A stretch of 64,000 nucleotides of DNA. Origin: Fimbriimonadales bacterium. GTDB lineage: Bacteria; Armatimonadota; Fimbriimonadia; Fimbriimonadales; ATM1. The notes below the pieces were generated by a model, which did not search any database, was not told the origin of the DNA, and saw only the letters and a list, made by a program, of their open reading frames with translations. Below are positions 56,203-62,021 of this stretch, one piece after another. The position numbers were made by a program, and so were the translations under genes. Every line of letters starts with the position of its first letter. The first letter of the stretch is position 1. The stretch spans positions 165,632 to 229,631 of the forward strand of contig JBGTLG010000006.1 of assembly GCA_041744215.1 (NCBI GenBank), read 5' to 3'.

Positions 56203-56251
56203 GCCGAAATGGAACGGATGGCGTCAGGATCACGTTACAGTAATTGAGCTC

Positions 56252-56635
56252 ATGCGATTTCGGAAAATAGCCGTTCTCACAGCGATGCTGGTCGGTCTGC
56301 TTCAGGCAGGACCCATCGTCGCATGTGCTTTGACTTGCAAAGACGGCAAGTGCCCGATGGCGGTCAAGCAGTCTGGCTGCTGTGAGTCGGAGACCACGCA
56401 GCAACATGACGAGGCTGACTGCAGCTGTGCGATCTCCGCGCCGGAAATCGCGCCCCCAAACAGCGTTGCGATCCCGCAACCAACGTTAGAGATTGCCGGC
56501 ATGCCTCCGAGCGAAACCCGCGACCTTAAACAGATCCCAGCCACATTTACACCTGGCATCTTTGGGGGAGACCCAGGTCCACCTGGACTTCGCCCGCACT
56601 TCAGCCAACACGAACGCGCGCCTCCGGTCTCGTGA
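56252..56635 (+). CDS. Secreted Cys-rich uORF with C-terminal RAPP motif (CruR/CutF/DUF2946-like arrest peptide)
   Basis: Signal peptide, CALTC..GKCPM..GCC..CSC, Pro-rich linker, ends HERAPPVS*. Confidence 0.8.
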   Translation: MRFRKIAVLTAMLVGLLQAGPIVACALTCKDGKCPMAVKQSGCCESETTQQHDEADCSCAISAPEIAPPNSVAIPQPTLEIAGMPPSETRDLKQIPATFTPGIFGGDPGPPGLRPHFSQHERAPPVS

Positions 56636-56692
56636 AGTTTCAATCGCGCCGGTAGGCGCGGATCGCAGTTCTTCACACCACGATACCGGAGG
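56621..56692 (+). promoter_or_regulatory. Anti-Shine-Dalgarno stem formed by the RAPP/stop codons and the downstream SD
   Basis: CCTCCGGT-C-TCGTG (56621-56634) is complementary to CACGA-T-ACCGGAGG (56679-56692); inner hairpin CGCGCC-ggta-GGCGCG. Confidence 0.8.
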
Positions 56693-56700
56693 TATTTCTA

Positions 56701-58839
56701 GTGTTCAGCACAATTCTTTTTGCACTCGTTGCGCAGTCCGCGCAGCTAAGTTGCCCCATCATGGGCGGTTCTATCGCCGCTGACTCAACCGTTGTCGAAT
56801 ACGCCGGAGCACAGTTCAAATTCTGTTGTCCCGGATGTGACGCGGTATTCAAGAAGGACCCTGCCAAAGCAATCGCTGAGGCCGTCAAGAAGAAGGAGAC
56901 CGTTGGAGTCTTCCTGTTTGATCCCGTCTCTCGCAATCGCTTAGATATCGCAAAAGCCAAGGCGACGTTGGATCACAATGGAATTCGATTCCCATTCGAA
57001 TCGACCGCAAACCGCGACAAGTTTCGCGCTGCGTCTGCGAGGTATGCGTCCGTTCCCGGAAAGGAAGCGCTCTTTTGCCCTGTGATGCAATCGAAAGTCG
57101 CGAGCATTTCGAAGGCCGCAGGCTACGTTGACCACGGTGGAGTTCGCTACTACACTTGCTGTGCAGGATGCAACGCGCCGCTTGCGAAGGAGCCGTCGAA
57201 GTATGCGCCGAACGCAGCTCGACACGTCAAGACCGTTGGCGCCCATCAGGGCGTCAGCGGCAAAGCGGAGGAACCTGTCACTGAAGTTACTGAGATTACG
57301 TCGGTCACTGCAGGCAAGTACAAGATCGAGCTCCTCGTTCCCGAAGACGGAGTCTTCGCCGGTGAGGAGATCGACATTGAGTTCGTCATCGTCGACACTA
57401 CAAAGGAAGACCCTGACCTCGGGTTTCTTGGTGTCGCCAACCTGCGCTCGTCTGCAGTCGTTACGATGCCCAGCATGCCTGGTATGCCGGAAGCCAAGCC
57501 GAACATTCACCGCGAAGGGATTCCTGGATACTACGGTATCGAACTTTTCTTTCCGCACGGTGGTGACTACCGCATCGACTTGACGCTAACTCCTCCTGGC
57601 GAGCAGTCATTCGACATTCACTTCTTGATCGACGTCAAGGATGCGGAAGCGCGAACTGGCGAGCCGCGACCGAAACCGTTTACGCTCTCTGTGATCGATG
57701 GGGCGAAGCCGCAAGCAGGGACGCCTTTCGATTTGCGACTGAAAGTTCATGAAACTAAGACGTCAGGTGTCGTAACGAAATTCGAGATCGTGCATGAAGA
57801 GCGCTTTCACCTTTTGATCGCCTCCGAAGACTTCGGATGGTTCCTTCATGAGCATCCGACCATGAACGAAGATGGTGTCTGGACGCAAAACCTCACGTTT
57901 CCTGCTGGCGGCAAGTACTTCATTTACGGGGATGTTGCGCCGGTCGGAAAAGGGTCGCAAATCCTGATTGCAGAGGTCAACGTCGCGGGTACTCCATTTC
58001 CTGCAGCCGCGCCGTGGGCGCCGACACTCGGACCCAGTAGGGATGGCCAAACTGTAGGCACGCTTGGATTCGTTGACGGCGAACCACCTATTGGGAGAAT
58101 GACAACACTTTCGGTGAAACTAATCGACTCAGGAACGGGACAGCCCATTACCGACTTGCAACAGTGGCTCGGTGCCTGGGGGCACCTGATGATCTTCTCA
58201 CAAGATGGCATGACCGTAGTTCATAGCCATCCTGCGGAAAATGAAGAGACTGATCGCCTGCTAAACGAAGGGATCATTCACTTCACAGGCAGGTTTCCCA
58301 AAGCTGGCCTCTACCGAGCGTTTACGCAATTCAAACGCGGCGGAGAGATCAAGACGCTGTCATTCACGCTGGACGTCGGCCAAACACTCGTTTCGAATAC
58401 TTTTACAAGCACGGGTTTGGGAATGCTCCACGAGGTGCCTTGTCAATACTGCAAACTGATGGTTGTTCAGAACACAGACACGCAAGACAATGAAGTCGTC
58501 CTCCAGTTCGGCAACAAGAGGATCGAGTACCGATGCGTCTACTGCGCGATCGCGGACTCGACCCGTTACAAAGTCGATATCACGATTTATGCCCCAAGCG
58601 AGAAAGTAGGAGAGCCGGTCATTATCTTGCGCAGGGATGGCAAGTGGTCTACGCGGTCCGAAGAAGCAGTCTTCATCAACATGTTTAAGGAGCATCCCCA
58701 GTGCGCAGAGCTCTCCCGTGCTTTCCACACGAAGGAAGCATTTGACGCCTACGTTGCGAAACATGAGATTGAGGACCCGAAGGCGCTTAAGCTTGATCAA
58801 CTCGTCGAAGCGATTCTCAAGCCGAAGGACGGCAAGTGA
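56701..58839 (+). CDS. Secreted multidomain metal-binding protein (2x YHS, YtkA-like, His-motif Ig-like domains, NosL/MerB-like C-terminus)
   Basis: CPIMG...FCCPGC, CPVM...TCCAGC, MPSMPGM, HEERFHL..HEHP, GHLM..HSHP, CQYC...RCVYC. Confidence 0.8.
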   Translation: MFSTILFALVAQSAQLSCPIMGGSIAADSTVVEYAGAQFKFCCPGCDAVFKKDPAKAIAEAVKKKETVGVFLFDPVSRNRLDIAKAKATLDHNGIRFPFESTANRDKFRAASARYASVPGKEALFCPVMQSKVASISKAAGYVDHGGVRYYTCCAGCNAPLAKEPSKYAPNAARHVKTVGAHQGVSGKAEEPVTEVTEITSVTAGKYKIELLVPEDGVFAGEEIDIEFVIVDTTKEDPDLGFLGVANLRSSAVVTMPSMPGMPEAKPNIHREGIPGYYGIELFFPHGGDYRIDLTLTPPGEQSFDIHFLIDVKDAEARTGEPRPKPFTLSVIDGAKPQAGTPFDLRLKVHETKTSGVVTKFEIVHEERFHLLIASEDFGWFLHEHPTMNEDGVWTQNLTFPAGGKYFIYGDVAPVGKGSQILIAEVNVAGTPFPAAAPWAPTLGPSRDGQTVGTLGFVDGEPPIGRMTTLSVKLIDSGTGQPITDLQQWLGAWGHLMIFSQDGMTVVHSHPAENEETDRLLNEGIIHFTGRFPKAGLYRAFTQFKRGGEIKTLSFTLDVGQTLVSNTFTSTGLGMLHEVPCQYCKLMVVQNTDTQDNEVVLQFGNKRIEYRCVYCAIADSTRYKVDITIYAPSEKVGEPVIILRRDGKWSTRSEEAVFINMFKEHPQCAELSRAFHTKEAFDAYVAKHEIEDPKALKLDQLVEAILKPKDGK

Positions 58840-60299
58840 TACTCGCGGCGATTCTCGTTGCGACGCAATTCCCGGCGTGGATGAACAGTCCGCGCCCTAT
58901 GGAGGTGTTCCGGTTGCGCGCTTCGCACAACGACGCTGTCTACAACTTGCCGAGGCTTGCAAGGGATCTCAATGCCGTTGATGTTGGACATGCGACGGCC
59001 TATGAAGCGCTGGTGACGGGCCGCGAGGCTGTTCTTGAAACAGAAGTGTGGGGAAAGATCGCCCATACGCTAAAAAATCCTCCAAGTTTTAAGCCAGACG
59101 AGAAGTCGATCTCGCCCACGTTTACCAAGTTGTTCGGGGAACTTCACCTCGTGTTCGATTGGGCACACGTCTTGCACGCGCAGACGATTGACGTACTGTT
59201 ATCGGGCTTGACCCACTCGCAAATGGAAGCCGAAATCGAGAGACTATGGACTTTCTATCGAACGCGCGCGCCGTACGCCATTAGCGGACTGCCCATGAAC
59301 ATGGAGTTTCTCGACAGCCAACGCTACAGCGGGCACTTCAGAATCAAGTATCCAAAGGTAAACGCGCTCTTTTGGGGATATCACTGGCTCCAGGGCGCGA
59401 TGTATGACATGCTGTACCGCGTTCCGCGCGAGATGTGGGAGCCCTCCTATGACGTCGTAAGATCTCAGTACTTCGAGCGCGAGTTGTGGGACACAAATCG
59501 CGACTTCATGCCGATGTTCGCTGAGCAGAGTCCGCGGTTCGCGGCGAGATTCCCTGAACTTGCGAACGTGTTCGACAATCTGCACATGCTCCACGACATG
59601 GTGAACGACATTCTTGCGGACGAGTCGCTGAATGCAAAGGAAAAACATAGCGAGATCCGCATGGCGATCTTGATGACTTTGCACTCGTCTCACGCCAACT
59701 GCGATCCAGGAGAAGGCGAAGTGATGACTTTGCATGATCATCGCCACATGAACGGAATGCCTGGAATGGGGATGATGGTTGGCGGTACGCCTGAGCTTAT
59801 GTATATGCCGCGCATGGGATGGATGAGCATGGAGGAATGTCACCACTGCAGCATGTTTATGCCGGATCATAACATGAGATGGCGGCGATCGACGGTCAGC
59901 GTAGACGGTTGGACGATGGAAGTGCGGTGTCCCCTGTGTGCACGCGATATGGCCGCGCAGTATCTTGGTCGGGCAATTCTTCGCCTCCCCACCGAAGACC
60001 CAAATCAATTGTTGGTGCTAGTAGGAGATGAAATGGGCAATTACGCATCGTCATTGAAGGATGTGGTTTTTCTCGAAATGGAGGGGGAGCATCCTGAATG
60101 CAACCGCTGGTCGTATGCTTTTACATCGATAAGCGCATTTCGAAGGTACATCGCAGAGAACCCTCAGTACCAAGAAGCCAAACCCTACAGCCTCGAAGAA
60201 TGGTCTGCGTTGGCCGGAAGAAAGCCGGGCACGTATGAGCGCAAGCAAGGGCCGGTCGACAATCCATACAAGAACTGGCACAAAGGTGGCGGGAATTGA
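58836..60299 (+). CDS. Secreted His/Met-rich metalloprotein with NosL/MerB-like C-terminal domain
   Basis: Repeated VFD..HxLH helices, HDHRHMNGMPGMGMM linker, CHHC...RCPLC; GTGA coupling. Confidence 0.75.
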   Translation: MILAAILVATQFPAWMNSPRPMEVFRLRASHNDAVYNLPRLARDLNAVDVGHATAYEALVTGREAVLETEVWGKIAHTLKNPPSFKPDEKSISPTFTKLFGELHLVFDWAHVLHAQTIDVLLSGLTHSQMEAEIERLWTFYRTRAPYAISGLPMNMEFLDSQRYSGHFRIKYPKVNALFWGYHWLQGAMYDMLYRVPREMWEPSYDVVRSQYFERELWDTNRDFMPMFAEQSPRFAARFPELANVFDNLHMLHDMVNDILADESLNAKEKHSEIRMAILMTLHSSHANCDPGEGEVMTLHDHRHMNGMPGMGMMVGGTPELMYMPRMGWMSMEECHHCSMFMPDHNMRWRRSTVSVDGWTMEVRCPLCARDMAAQYLGRAILRLPTEDPNQLLVLVGDEMGNYASSLKDVVFLEMEGEHPECNRWSYAFTSISAFRRYIAENPQYQEAKPYSLEEWSALAGRKPGTYERKQGPVDNPYKNWHKGGGN

Positions 60300-61069
60300 G
60301 ACGCCTGCTTACAGCGATCGCTTTTCTTCCTGTCGCTGCTTTGTCTATCGATCATACAAAACTTGACTTTGGTCGGCCGCTTCAAATCGAAGATGCTCAC
60401 CCACTCGCTCTTGGAGAAATGAAACTCGAGCTCGGCGCAAGCGTGGCGATGTCGGATCACAATCGCTCTTTGTACAGCTTCGAAGTCGAATTCGCATACG
60501 GGATTGCACTCAATACACATATCGAAGTCGGTGTCGAACCGACGGCTGGTGTTCGGGCAGGCAATACGGATCGCGCCGTGGATCTCGGTCCAACCAGCGT
60601 TGGTGTCTTCTTCGGACTGACACGGGAATCGCCGACGACGCCAGCGAGCGCCGTAGCGGTTCGGGCCCATCTCCCAACCGGTCGTATAGGTAGTGCGACT
60701 GATGTTTCAGTAACGGGAATCTTTGGCGGCCAGGCAGGTGGGTTCGGTCGATGGCACACGAATCTAGGAGGAAGCGTTGCGGTAAACAGGCGATCGGGCG
60801 ACCGGTTGGTAACGTTCGCAGGGGGGCTTGGCTATAGTCAGCCGATTGGCCTCCCTTACGACTTTTCCCAAACGTTTGTGTCGGCTATCTCTATAAGACA
60901 ATCCCGTGAGGCGGAAGGCGGCTTGACTGGGACTCTGGGGGTCGGGCTTCGCCGACAAATCGGGATTCGCGATGTGTTAGACGTCGGAGTCGAAACCGAC
61001 GTCTTCGTCACTGGGGCCTCACAGCGCACACCGATTCGACTCATCATCGGTCTGTCTAGATCGTTCTAG
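60296..61069 (+). CDS. Outer-membrane beta-barrel transporter-like protein
   Basis: Signal peptide, RPLQIEDA.P, alternating beta strands, terminal Phe; TTGA coupling. Confidence 0.75.
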   Translation: MRRLLTAIAFLPVAALSIDHTKLDFGRPLQIEDAHPLALGEMKLELGASVAMSDHNRSLYSFEVEFAYGIALNTHIEVGVEPTAGVRAGNTDRAVDLGPTSVGVFFGLTRESPTTPASAVAVRAHLPTGRIGSATDVSVTGIFGGQAGGFGRWHTNLGGSVAVNRRSGDRLVTFAGGLGYSQPIGLPYDFSQTFVSAISIRQSREAEGGLTGTLGVGLRRQIGIRDVLDVGVETDVFVTGASQRTPIRLIIGLSRSF

Positions 61070-61099: not shown

Positions 61100-61456
61100 T
61101 TGGAACAGGAAGGTCCGAATCACCATAGCGCTGATACTTTTTGCCCCGTCGCCGATTTGCTCCACACACTCTCGGCGAAGTGGATACTTCCAGTCCTGTA
61201 TCAACTGCACTGCGCGGAAGGTCCGATGCGTTTTTGTCAGATTCGAGACGCGCGAGGAAGACTCACTCAAACAGAGTTGACGAAGACACTGCGGGCGTTT
61301 GAGCGACTGGGTATCGTTGAGCGTTCCACGTTTCCAGAGGTGCCGCCTCGTGTTGAATACAAATGCACTCATCTCGGTGAGTCGCTCAAAGAGCCACTCT
61401 GCGGCCTTGCTGACTGGCGGAGGCAGCATCGAGATGATCTGCGGCGGACAGTTTGA
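61100..61456 (+). CDS. HxlR-family winged-helix regulator
   Basis: CPV...L..KW.L.VL, LTKTLR.FE..GIVER, EVPPRVEY. Confidence 0.9.
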   Translation: MEQEGPNHHSADTFCPVADLLHTLSAKWILPVLYQLHCAEGPMRFCQIRDARGRLTQTELTKTLRAFERLGIVERSTFPEVPPRVEYKCTHLGESLKEPLCGLADWRRQHRDDLRRTV

Positions 61457-61484
61457 CTGGTTGCAGGTCAAGTGATTTCGAACC

Positions 61485-62021
61485 ATGACGCAAGCAAAGT
61501 ACATCGCTGAGTATCCCGCGCGCATCGAACGCCTCATTGGGCGACTGACCTCCGCGTGCGAGCGGCTGTCCGATGAGCAATTCAACTCTAAGGGTGAAGG
61601 TTTCGAGTGGAGCCCTGCGCAGATCATCGACCACATGATGATCACGAATCGCGGCTATCTTCCGGTACTCGAAGCCGCGATTCAAAACGGGAAGCGAGGA
61701 GAAGGCGAGCTCAACCATAGCTGGTTTGGAAAGACGCTGGTCAGACTTTCTGGCCCAACCAGCAAGGCGAATGCGCCGAAGTGGTTGACTCCTGGCAACG
61801 GACCATTCACGAGAGGCATCTTGCAAGAATGCGTCGATCAGCATCGCCGGATTGCAGAGATCTCGCGAACATGCGAGGGTATCGACATATCGAGGACTTC
61901 GTTTCGAAATCCGTACGTTCGGCTGTTTAAGATGAACTTGGCCGACGCATTCGAAGCGATTGCTCAACACGCTGAGAGACACATAGGACAGATTGAAGAA
62001 TTCGTGGCTAGCGCTTCCTGA
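61485..62021 (+). CDS. DinB/YfiT family protein
   Basis: WSPAQIIDHM and QHAERHIGQI His triad. Confidence 0.88.
   Translation: MTQAKYIAEYPARIERLIGRLTSACERLSDEQFNSKGEGFEWSPAQIIDHMMITNRGYLPVLEAAIQNGKRGEGELNHSWFGKTLVRLSGPTSKANAPKWLTPGNGPFTRGILQECVDQHRRIAEISRTCEGIDISRTSFRNPYVRLFKMNLADAFEAIAQHAERHIGQIEEFVASAS

Follow-up and report, generated by a model that had tools for sequence, protein, structure and literature searches.

Can the last codons of a small exported peptide act as a translational switch for the genes that follow it? The question is raised by a locus of a Fimbriimonadales bacterium (phylum Armatimonadota), within a stretch of 64,000 nucleotides of contig JBGTLG010000006.1 (assembly GCA_041744215.1) referred to below as the window. 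There, a 127-aa upstream open reading frame (uORF; 56252..56635), here called the leader, precedes a gene for a 712-aa protein (56701..58839); all window features described here lie on the + strand. The leader encodes a predicted exported arrest peptide ending in RAPP, and the codons for its last residues pair with the 712-aa gene's Shine-Dalgarno (SD) sequence. The leader and this anti-SD stem are real and well supported computationally; no new kind of mechanism is established. The reading that we prefer, and hold to be somewhat better than an even bet, is that the leader would be a metal-sensing RAPP arrest peptide whose stalling opens the SD stem, and that copper may prolong the arrest and so turn the operon on.

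A conserved leader ending in RAPP

Translation and hydropathy bear out a preliminary description of this DNA. The leader is a 127-aa ORF with a hydrophobic N-terminus, seven Cys residues (at 25, 29, 34, 43, 44, 57 and 59) and the C-terminus ...ERAPPVS*. The ORF is further backed by conservation and profile matches. Residues 6-16 are hydrophobic (mean hydropathy 2.6) and, with the basic start before them, form a predicted signal peptide (56252..56323), judged from the hydropathy pattern. Among 143 family proteins, a hydrophobic stretch lies in the first 45 aa of 129, compared with 24 for the last 80 aa. The sequence IVAC (residues 22-25) resembles a lipobox and is not conserved, lipobox-like sequences being present in 10 of the 143. 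The Cys residues are arranged as C25-x3-C29, C34, C43-C44 and C57-x-C59 (56324..56428), a cluster predicted to sense metal or disulfide state; CC is found in 147 and CxC in 148 of 150 relatives.

The RAPP codons (56615..56626) are the predicted stall site. Following the geometry given in PMC10951233 and PMC12992588, Pro124 (56621-56623) would sit in the P site and Pro125 (56624-56626) in the A site. RAPP lies within the last 16 aa in 145 of the 150 relatives, and in an alignment of 18 leaders, with 20-43% identity to that of the window, the only invariant features are the start, three Cys and RAPP. A G-P-P motif (56576..56584) is located 10 residues ahead of RAPP. This upstream PP, which sits inside a PGIxGxDSGPP consensus, is present in 138 of the 150 proteins and at 103 of 110 loci, with a spacer of 9-10 residues at 100 of the 110, and may be a tunnel contact. 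It is rarer outside the class Fimbriimonadia (10 of 37 loci of other classes). The leaders of loci L016, L018 and L046 carry a tandem RGPP-x10-RAPP, some with a third GPP in between.

Named contigs carrying relatives of the 712-aa protein belong mostly to Fimbriimonadales and other Armatimonadota. Of the 21 closest homologues of the 712-aa gene, which match it over nearly its full length, 19 have a RAPP-ending ORF directly upstream; among nine single-domain matches, one does. The two exceptions are rearranged loci, in which the leader still heads the operon, and the leader is present at all 20 named loci, once as RSPP. A leader profile matches 100 of 228 genomes of the class and 355 representative proteins at E 0.001, a wider profile matches 67 of 401 genomes sampled across the phylum, and RAPP or RGPP is present at all 37 loci of other classes. 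One genome (G113) has 6-7 leader-family copies, each ahead of different genes. Three leaders, at L099 (G208:C1:1680110-1680591), L135 and L158, appear to be broken or frameshifted, with a split profile match or RAPP distant from the stop. In the genome of the window, 12 frames of at least 60 codons end in RAPP or RGPP, and the window leader is the sole credible leader of this kind; the others resembled chance or ordinary genes and were set aside. Pfam and NCBIfam contain no family for the leader. A protein atlas placed it near unnamed look-alike clusters (score 0.96, Bacteroidota/Verrucomicrobiota), with DUF6769 as a lead only. Two loci, L008 and L059, come from an unpublished genome (G011); L008 is included among the 19 leaders identified by synteny and in the 110-locus counts, and was removed as a duplicate from the tests on 81 junctions described below.

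The distance between the last Cys and the second Pro of RAPP is held within narrow limits. It is 66 residues in the window leader, 61-72 in 19 of 19 leaders identified by synteny alone and 61-72 at 33 of 37 loci of other classes (one has no value); the distance from the first CC to the last Cys varies from 16 to 54 in the same 19. About 30 residues occupy the ribosomal tunnel and 17 cross the membrane (PMC9973294). By these figures, every residue of the Cys cluster would have reached the periplasm when the arrest sets in.

A longer frame of 169 codons from a TTG was discarded, as homologues begin at the MRF position. There is no SD ahead of the leader start, and a candidate -10 promoter box, TACAGT (56236..56241), lies 10 nt before the ATG. 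TAnnnT is present 3-12 nt before the start of 52 of 107 family leaders. At downstream starts it is seen in 3 of 81 cases, in shifted windows in 7 of 107, and the genome background is 232 of 1430 ORF starts; SD-like sequences precede 12 of the 107. From these patterns, the family leaders apparently are leaderless or short-leadered. A generic promoter and terminator scan, which did not list the TACAGT box, gave nothing above chance at the leader or the spacer.

A stem over the Shine-Dalgarno sequence

The Pro-Pro-Val-Ser-stop codons, CCTCCGGTCTCGTG (56621..56634), form the anti-SD arm. The 3' arm, CACGATACCGGAGG (56679..56692), includes GGAGG (56688-56692), 8 nt ahead of the GTG start of the 712-aa ORF. 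Watson-Crick pairing between the arms at 13 of 14 positions had been claimed before, and both the pairing and its coordinates are confirmed. When 56580-56720 is folded, as had been suggested, the stem is present in the minimum-energy and the centroid structures (-43 kcal/mol, z -2.28, equalled by 1 of 200 shuffles), with GUGAAG-CUUCAC as the predicted inner part in place of the last three pairs first named. The minimum-energy fold, and not the centroid, also pairs GAACGC (56612..56617) with the start-codon region (56701-56706). An intergenic GC-rich hairpin (56645..56660) is predicted inside the loop; by eye, similar hairpins are seen in many homologue folds. The leader-to-gene spacer is 65 nt long in the window, and the family median is 71.

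Computed accessibility links this stem to the predicted stall. With the stalled ribosome masked, the first three bases of the SD in the window go from an unpaired probability of 0 to one of about 0.9, and the opening cost of the ribosome-binding site falls from 15.1 to 9.1 kcal/mol. The cost drops by at least 2 kcal/mol at 54 of 81 loci of the class and 24 of 30 loci of other classes; a ribosome placed 13 codons earlier achieves this at just 7 of 81 and 4 of 30. In these computed structures, an SD-sequestering stem overlaps the footprint of the stalled ribosome, as in a switch of the CutF/SecM type.

Proline codons of the form CCN-CCN are inherently anti-SD, and for this reason synonymous codings of the leader end were compared: only 8 of 1152 codings of P-P-V-S-stop pair equally well with 56670-56700. 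The stem could nevertheless be a by-product of CCN-CCN facing GGAGG, or a constitutive damping or coupling device, with the small protein serving as a periplasmic metal binder or a cysteine-supply sensor. We regard this as very improbable. It is true that arm positions 4-5 pair by construction and that positions 1-2 pair in just 11 and 32 of 81 junctions, and leaderless Cys-rich uORFs are reported to sense cysteine in mycobacteria (10.1101/834739). However, the covariation is located outside the forced CC, the bias towards CCT is specific to the RAPP proline, and the leader keeps its RAPP, its PP spacer and its Cys-to-Pro distance while the remainder diverges to 20-43% identity. Cysteine-supply sensing in particular is ruled out by geometry: the Cys codons are more than 60 codons upstream of the stem, which is not opened even by a ribosome placed just 13 codons ahead of the stall.

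The covariation was measured as follows. Of 118 profile rows, 112 were kept (two had low scores and four lacked RAPP or RGPP); a rule that took no account of the leader found a GGA site in front of a plausible start at 89 of the 112 junctions, and 81 of these are unique. The register was anchored by setting the CC of the second Pro on the GG of the SD. Arm positions 6, 7, 9 and 10 then form Watson-Crick pairs in 56, 50, 44 and 42 of the 81 junctions, against permutation expectations of 29.3, 32.0, 25.3 and 24.7, and several pair types occur at position 6 (T-A 36, A-T 10, G-C 9, C-G 1). Positions 11-15 are at chance. The anchored register has 237 paired cells of 405, compared with 76-120 in six slid registers. 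In 40 disjoint nearest-neighbour pairs of junctions, the own partner paired better in 19, worse in 3 and equally in 18 (sign test p 0.0009), and two-sided changes were compensatory in 21 cases and crosswise in 3 (11:8 at control positions). A permutation within clusters was significant at four of five cut-offs. The first Pro codon of RAPP, finally, is CCT, which pairs with the A of the SD, at 71 of 110 loci, as compared with 16 of 103 for the upstream PP, 228 of 1247 for other leader prolines and 455 of 1957 for first-of-PP codons in the genome.

Outside the class, occlusion of the SD recurs in a different form. A duplex search free of any register gave -14.8 against -10.1 kcal/mol in the 81 junctions of the class and -14.0 against -9.8 kcal/mol in 30 junctions of other classes (p 0.0002 for each, kinship not corrected). 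The agreement of the two sets suggests that occlusion of the SD by the 3' end of the leader is phylum-wide. At many loci of other classes the anti-SD comes from the last codons and the stop, for example TCC-TGA against TCAGGA, and the CCT bias is weaker (14 of 37). It is chiefly in Fimbriimonadia that the Pro-Pro codons carry the anti-SD.

Several results speak against a stall-opened stem. The Pro-anchored register failed in the 30 held-out junctions of other classes (29 of 150 cells paired, 34.5 when permuted), and a tree-based test of independent pairs yielded 2-3 supported pairs, too few for a verdict. The register test excluded 23 of the 112 junctions, which have no GGA site by the rule, and some start choices proved wrong. 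Once the ribosome has stalled in the window, a weak G-U-rich hairpin should, by prediction, re-form across the start codon and the last two SD bases. RAPP arrest itself varies with context and with the ribosome species (PMC12992588). The proposal that homologues would share the motif and a covarying stem has held in part: RAPP is conserved and the stem covaries within the class, while the exact register fails in other classes. On balance we consider it highly probable that a stall opens the SD stem.

The genes behind the leader and the proposed direction of the response

The 712-aa protein, predicted to be exported, has YHS/TRASH-like repeats, a YtkA-like domain, a His-rich core and a C-terminal CxxC domain, with Pfam matches to YHS (E 5.5e-12) and YtkA (E 1.5e-9). 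In the family, the next ORF resembles the YHS/YtkA/CxxC-type proteins of the window in 81 of 112 rows. Among the other 31 rows, 23 were scanned against Pfam and contain OEP (5), CusB-like proteins with heavy-metal domains (4), cupredoxin (2) and SLOG (1). In other classes, 15 of 30 next ORFs were scanned and include OEP (3) and YtkA-containing proteins (4, one of them a CusB-cupredoxin fusion). P1B ATPases with CPC, YN and MxxSS motifs, which by motif rules we take to be of the copper type, are present in 4 of 20 large loci, and an RND pump is also found nearby. The genes behind the leaders are, by their domains and motifs, likely copper-related.

Some products directly behind leaders lack database families. 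Small secreted Cys/Lys-rich proteins are encoded at L144:2115-2378 (-) and L148:2063-2455 (-), and further at L156, L158, L161, L102, L109, L093, L133 and L137; with 70-165 aa, they appear metallothionein-like by composition. No Pfam family was found for the 8 scanned of 10 small secreted Cys-rich proteins, or for 3 scanned members of an unassigned group of 8. A family of membrane-anchored helical proteins (150-180 aa) with a GPGT motif and KPEP, again without a Pfam family, lies behind the leaders of L103, L106, L108, L112, L118, L125 and L157.

It is probable that the signal is a metal, and metal switching the genes on is favoured with less assurance over metal switching them off. The preferred mechanism may be outlined as follows. 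A promoter just upstream of the ATG would give a near-leaderless mRNA, and the signal peptide would direct the growing peptide to Sec. By the time Pro124 enters the P site, the Cys cluster, about 66 residues away, would just have emerged in the periplasm. When metal is absent, export and disulfide-driven folding would pull the chain through RAPP, and after termination the stem would close. If the Cys cluster binds copper or another thiophilic metal like it, the arrest would be lengthened and the stem kept open: the stalled ribosome would cover the Pro-Pro-Val-Ser-stop codons, freeing the ribosome-binding site of the next gene, and translation of the 712-aa gene, with that of the overlapping genes that follow, would proceed.

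The same stall-opened stem could also work with the polarity of CruR. In that case the ribosome would arrest by default, and the chain would be freed when the Cys cluster binds metal or folds. The preliminary description had named metal binding as one way to relieve the arrest; this would put the genes off in metal, so that they would be on at copper scarcity and serve copper capture and delivery. RAPP arrest is strong and EF-P-resistant (PMC12992588), and CruR, which has the same motif, is released by copper (PMC9426467). YtkA/CtaK serves CuA assembly (PMC13344008) and the 487-aa protein described below has a NosL-like fold; domains of the YtkA and NosL types deliver copper, which would fit this opposite polarity. 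However, among the genes that leaders of the family head are efflux components (OEP, CusB-like) and small secreted proteins rich in Cys, copper-type ATPases and an RND pump are nearby, and none of the 112 classified rows has a TonB-dependent receptor, which is typical of CruR homologues (PMC9426467). We judge the CruR-like polarity possible and rather unlikely. Arrest prolonged by metal is slightly favoured because many family-headed genes are of efflux or sequestration types.

A different possibility is that the leader monitors the envelope, that is, Sec export capacity or the periplasmic disulfide/redox state, in the manner of SecM or VemP, with disulfide folding pulling on the arrest. A signal peptide with RAPP is the anatomy of Sec-monitoring peptides (PMC10987492, PMC7897499), disulfide-driven pulling was proposed for CutF itself (bioRxiv 10.1101/2025.02.05.636593), and the Cys pattern is unlike the CXXC of CruR (CxxC is present in 17 of 150 relatives and absent from the window leader). 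Against this, no sec or yidC gene was found among the 112 classified downstream ORFs, which encode mostly metal-binding or efflux proteins, and an envelope monitor seems improbable.

Behind the 712-aa gene, which overlaps its neighbour, are genes for a 487-aa protein (58836..60299) and a 257-aa protein (60296..61069), also overlapping each other. The 712-aa gene is a fusion here (58390-58400, residue ~563), most relatives encoding the last ~150-aa CxxC domain separately, and its residues 573-700 are weakly similar to the product of the next gene (E 2e-7). For the core of the 712-aa protein, the protein atlas gave unnamed clusters and YtkA (19% of members). In an AlphaFold model (pLDDT 93), the 487-aa protein has a His-rich helical domain and a C-terminal MerB/NosL-like fold. 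Model comparison of the latter gave Z 9.2 and rmsd 5.0 over 139 aligned residues for MerB2, and Z 7.6 and rmsd 3.9 over 118 for NosL, a shared fold that shows no function; a Foldseek search with the model returned nothing at E 0.001, MerB ranking first. The helical domain (residues 1-285, 58836-59690) is confidently modelled and has many invariant His/Asp, for example in FDNLHMLHD. It has no clear structural match, which says nothing about novelty, and those listed of its 535 relatives are all hypothetical proteins; it is possible that it represents a new metal-binding domain. The 257-aa protein, conserved in 11 of 20 large loci, is probably an outer-membrane beta-barrel, going by its sequence pattern and C-terminal Phe. 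Pfam and NCBIfam have no match for the 487-aa and 257-aa proteins. Next after the operon, in the same orientation, come an HxlR-family regulator and a DinB-family gene (61100-62021). Elsewhere in the same genome (G000:C41:199000-203900; L199:6058-9842), a YHS-only paralogue of the 712-aa gene and an ArsR-like regulator are transcribed divergently from genes for a cupredoxin-HMA P1B ATPase, again with the copper-type motifs, and a small protein resembling CopZ; the small-protein labels there come from sequence reading.

The preferred reading may be extended to the whole phylum, tentatively and at less than even probability. Armatimonadota leaders, made from near-leaderless mRNAs, would then sense copper across the envelope, metal prolonging the RAPP arrest in reverse of what it does to CruR on the same motif. 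They would have a ruler of about 66 residues, a two-part PP-x10-RAPP motif and an anti-SD that lies in the stall codons in Fimbriimonadia and has slid to the last codons and the stop elsewhere. If true, this would amount to a post-transcriptional metal regulon whose unstudied members include secreted peptides resembling metallothioneins and proteins with the NosL/MerB fold. The leader family marks several Armatimonadota protein families that lack annotation as probable copper-handling proteins.

Comparison with known arrest peptides

The preliminary description was right about the RAPP leader, the SD-occluding stem and the metal-related genes. The closest working model is CutF, already published, so that the class of mechanism is known. 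In Rhodobacter capsulatus, a copper-prolonged stall on CutF opens an SD stem before cutO (Ozturk et al. 2023, PMC9973294; bioRxiv 10.1101/2025.02.05.636593). In common with CutF there is a small Cys-containing leader, here predicted to be exported, that ends in a proline-based stall motif, a stem that shields the SD and would be opened by the stalled ribosome, and a likely copper-related gene behind. Under the CutF-like rules of Ozturk et al. 2023, the window leader has 127 aa (<150), PP at 124-125 (<=15 from the end), a next gene on the same strand at 65 nt (<1000) and a CxxxC (C25-x3-C29); many of its relatives are longer than 150 aa. Unlike CutF, it has RAPP instead of PPP, a last Cys set about 62 residues from the motif instead of 45, a CC/CxC cluster, an extra upstream PP, different target genes and no DUF2946 match. 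The anti-SD is inside the stall codons here, whereas the CutF stem, by the description in the papers, lies between cutF and cutO.

CruR (Bp2923, DUF2946) of Bordetella pertussis is turned off by copper (Roy et al. 2022, PMC9426467), and its arrest was demonstrated in PMC12992588. The window leader shares with it RAPP a few residues before the stop, a Cys motif at a fixed distance, a predicted export signal and a likely copper-related operon. In CruR, however, CXXC lies 45 residues (plus or minus 2) before RAPP, whereas here CxC lies 62 before R122, and CruR has a 162-nt spacer with Rho-dependent termination, whereas here a structured 65-nt spacer has a covarying anti-SD stem. A short structured spacer argues against Rho-dependent termination. 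DUF2946 (PF11162) gave no match for the window leader, 18 aligned homologues or 149 relatives (among the 25 families shown), and a PF11162 search of the genome gave nothing at the leader locus and nothing above cut-off. By profile and by spacing, the leader is not a CruR/DUF2946 member, contrary to its first description as a CruR-like peptide.

The combination of signal peptide and RAPP is shared with ApdA/ApdP/ApcA and SecM/MifM/VemP (PMC7897499, PMC10951233, PMC10987492). In SecM and uDF_RQH (PMC10987492) a stall opens an SD-sequestering stem, and PMC7897499 predicted no hairpin of this kind for ApcA/ApdA/ApdP. Peptides that monitor sec/yidC precede sec/yidC genes and have no Cys cluster, whereas the window leader precedes a YHS/YtkA-like gene.

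Fujiwara et al. 2025 (PMC12992588) show that small secretory uORFs with RAPP occur widely ahead of metal genes. The source data of Figure 4B of that paper list members of the present family as untested table rows, for example [GenBank:MBC8064697.1], which precedes a YHS protein on JACMJO010000251.1 (locus L044 is on this contig too), and [GenBank:MBS1723008.1] and [GenBank:MBS1723442.1], before an RND adaptor and a YHS protein. The main text mentions neither Armatimonad nor YHS, stem-loop or Shine-Dalgarno. A literature search, which did not reach subscription papers and some supplements, found no paper on an arrest peptide of Armatimonadota.

As far as the available parts of the cited papers go, covariation support of this kind is without report for any RAPP peptide. 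How a ligand outside the membrane lengthens or shortens arrest is stated as unknown in PMC9973294, and a different, tightly held spacer with more than 100 natural variants offers direct tests of ruler and polarity. The present family unites two halves known separately, the RAPP arrest of CruR and the SD-stem output of CutF.

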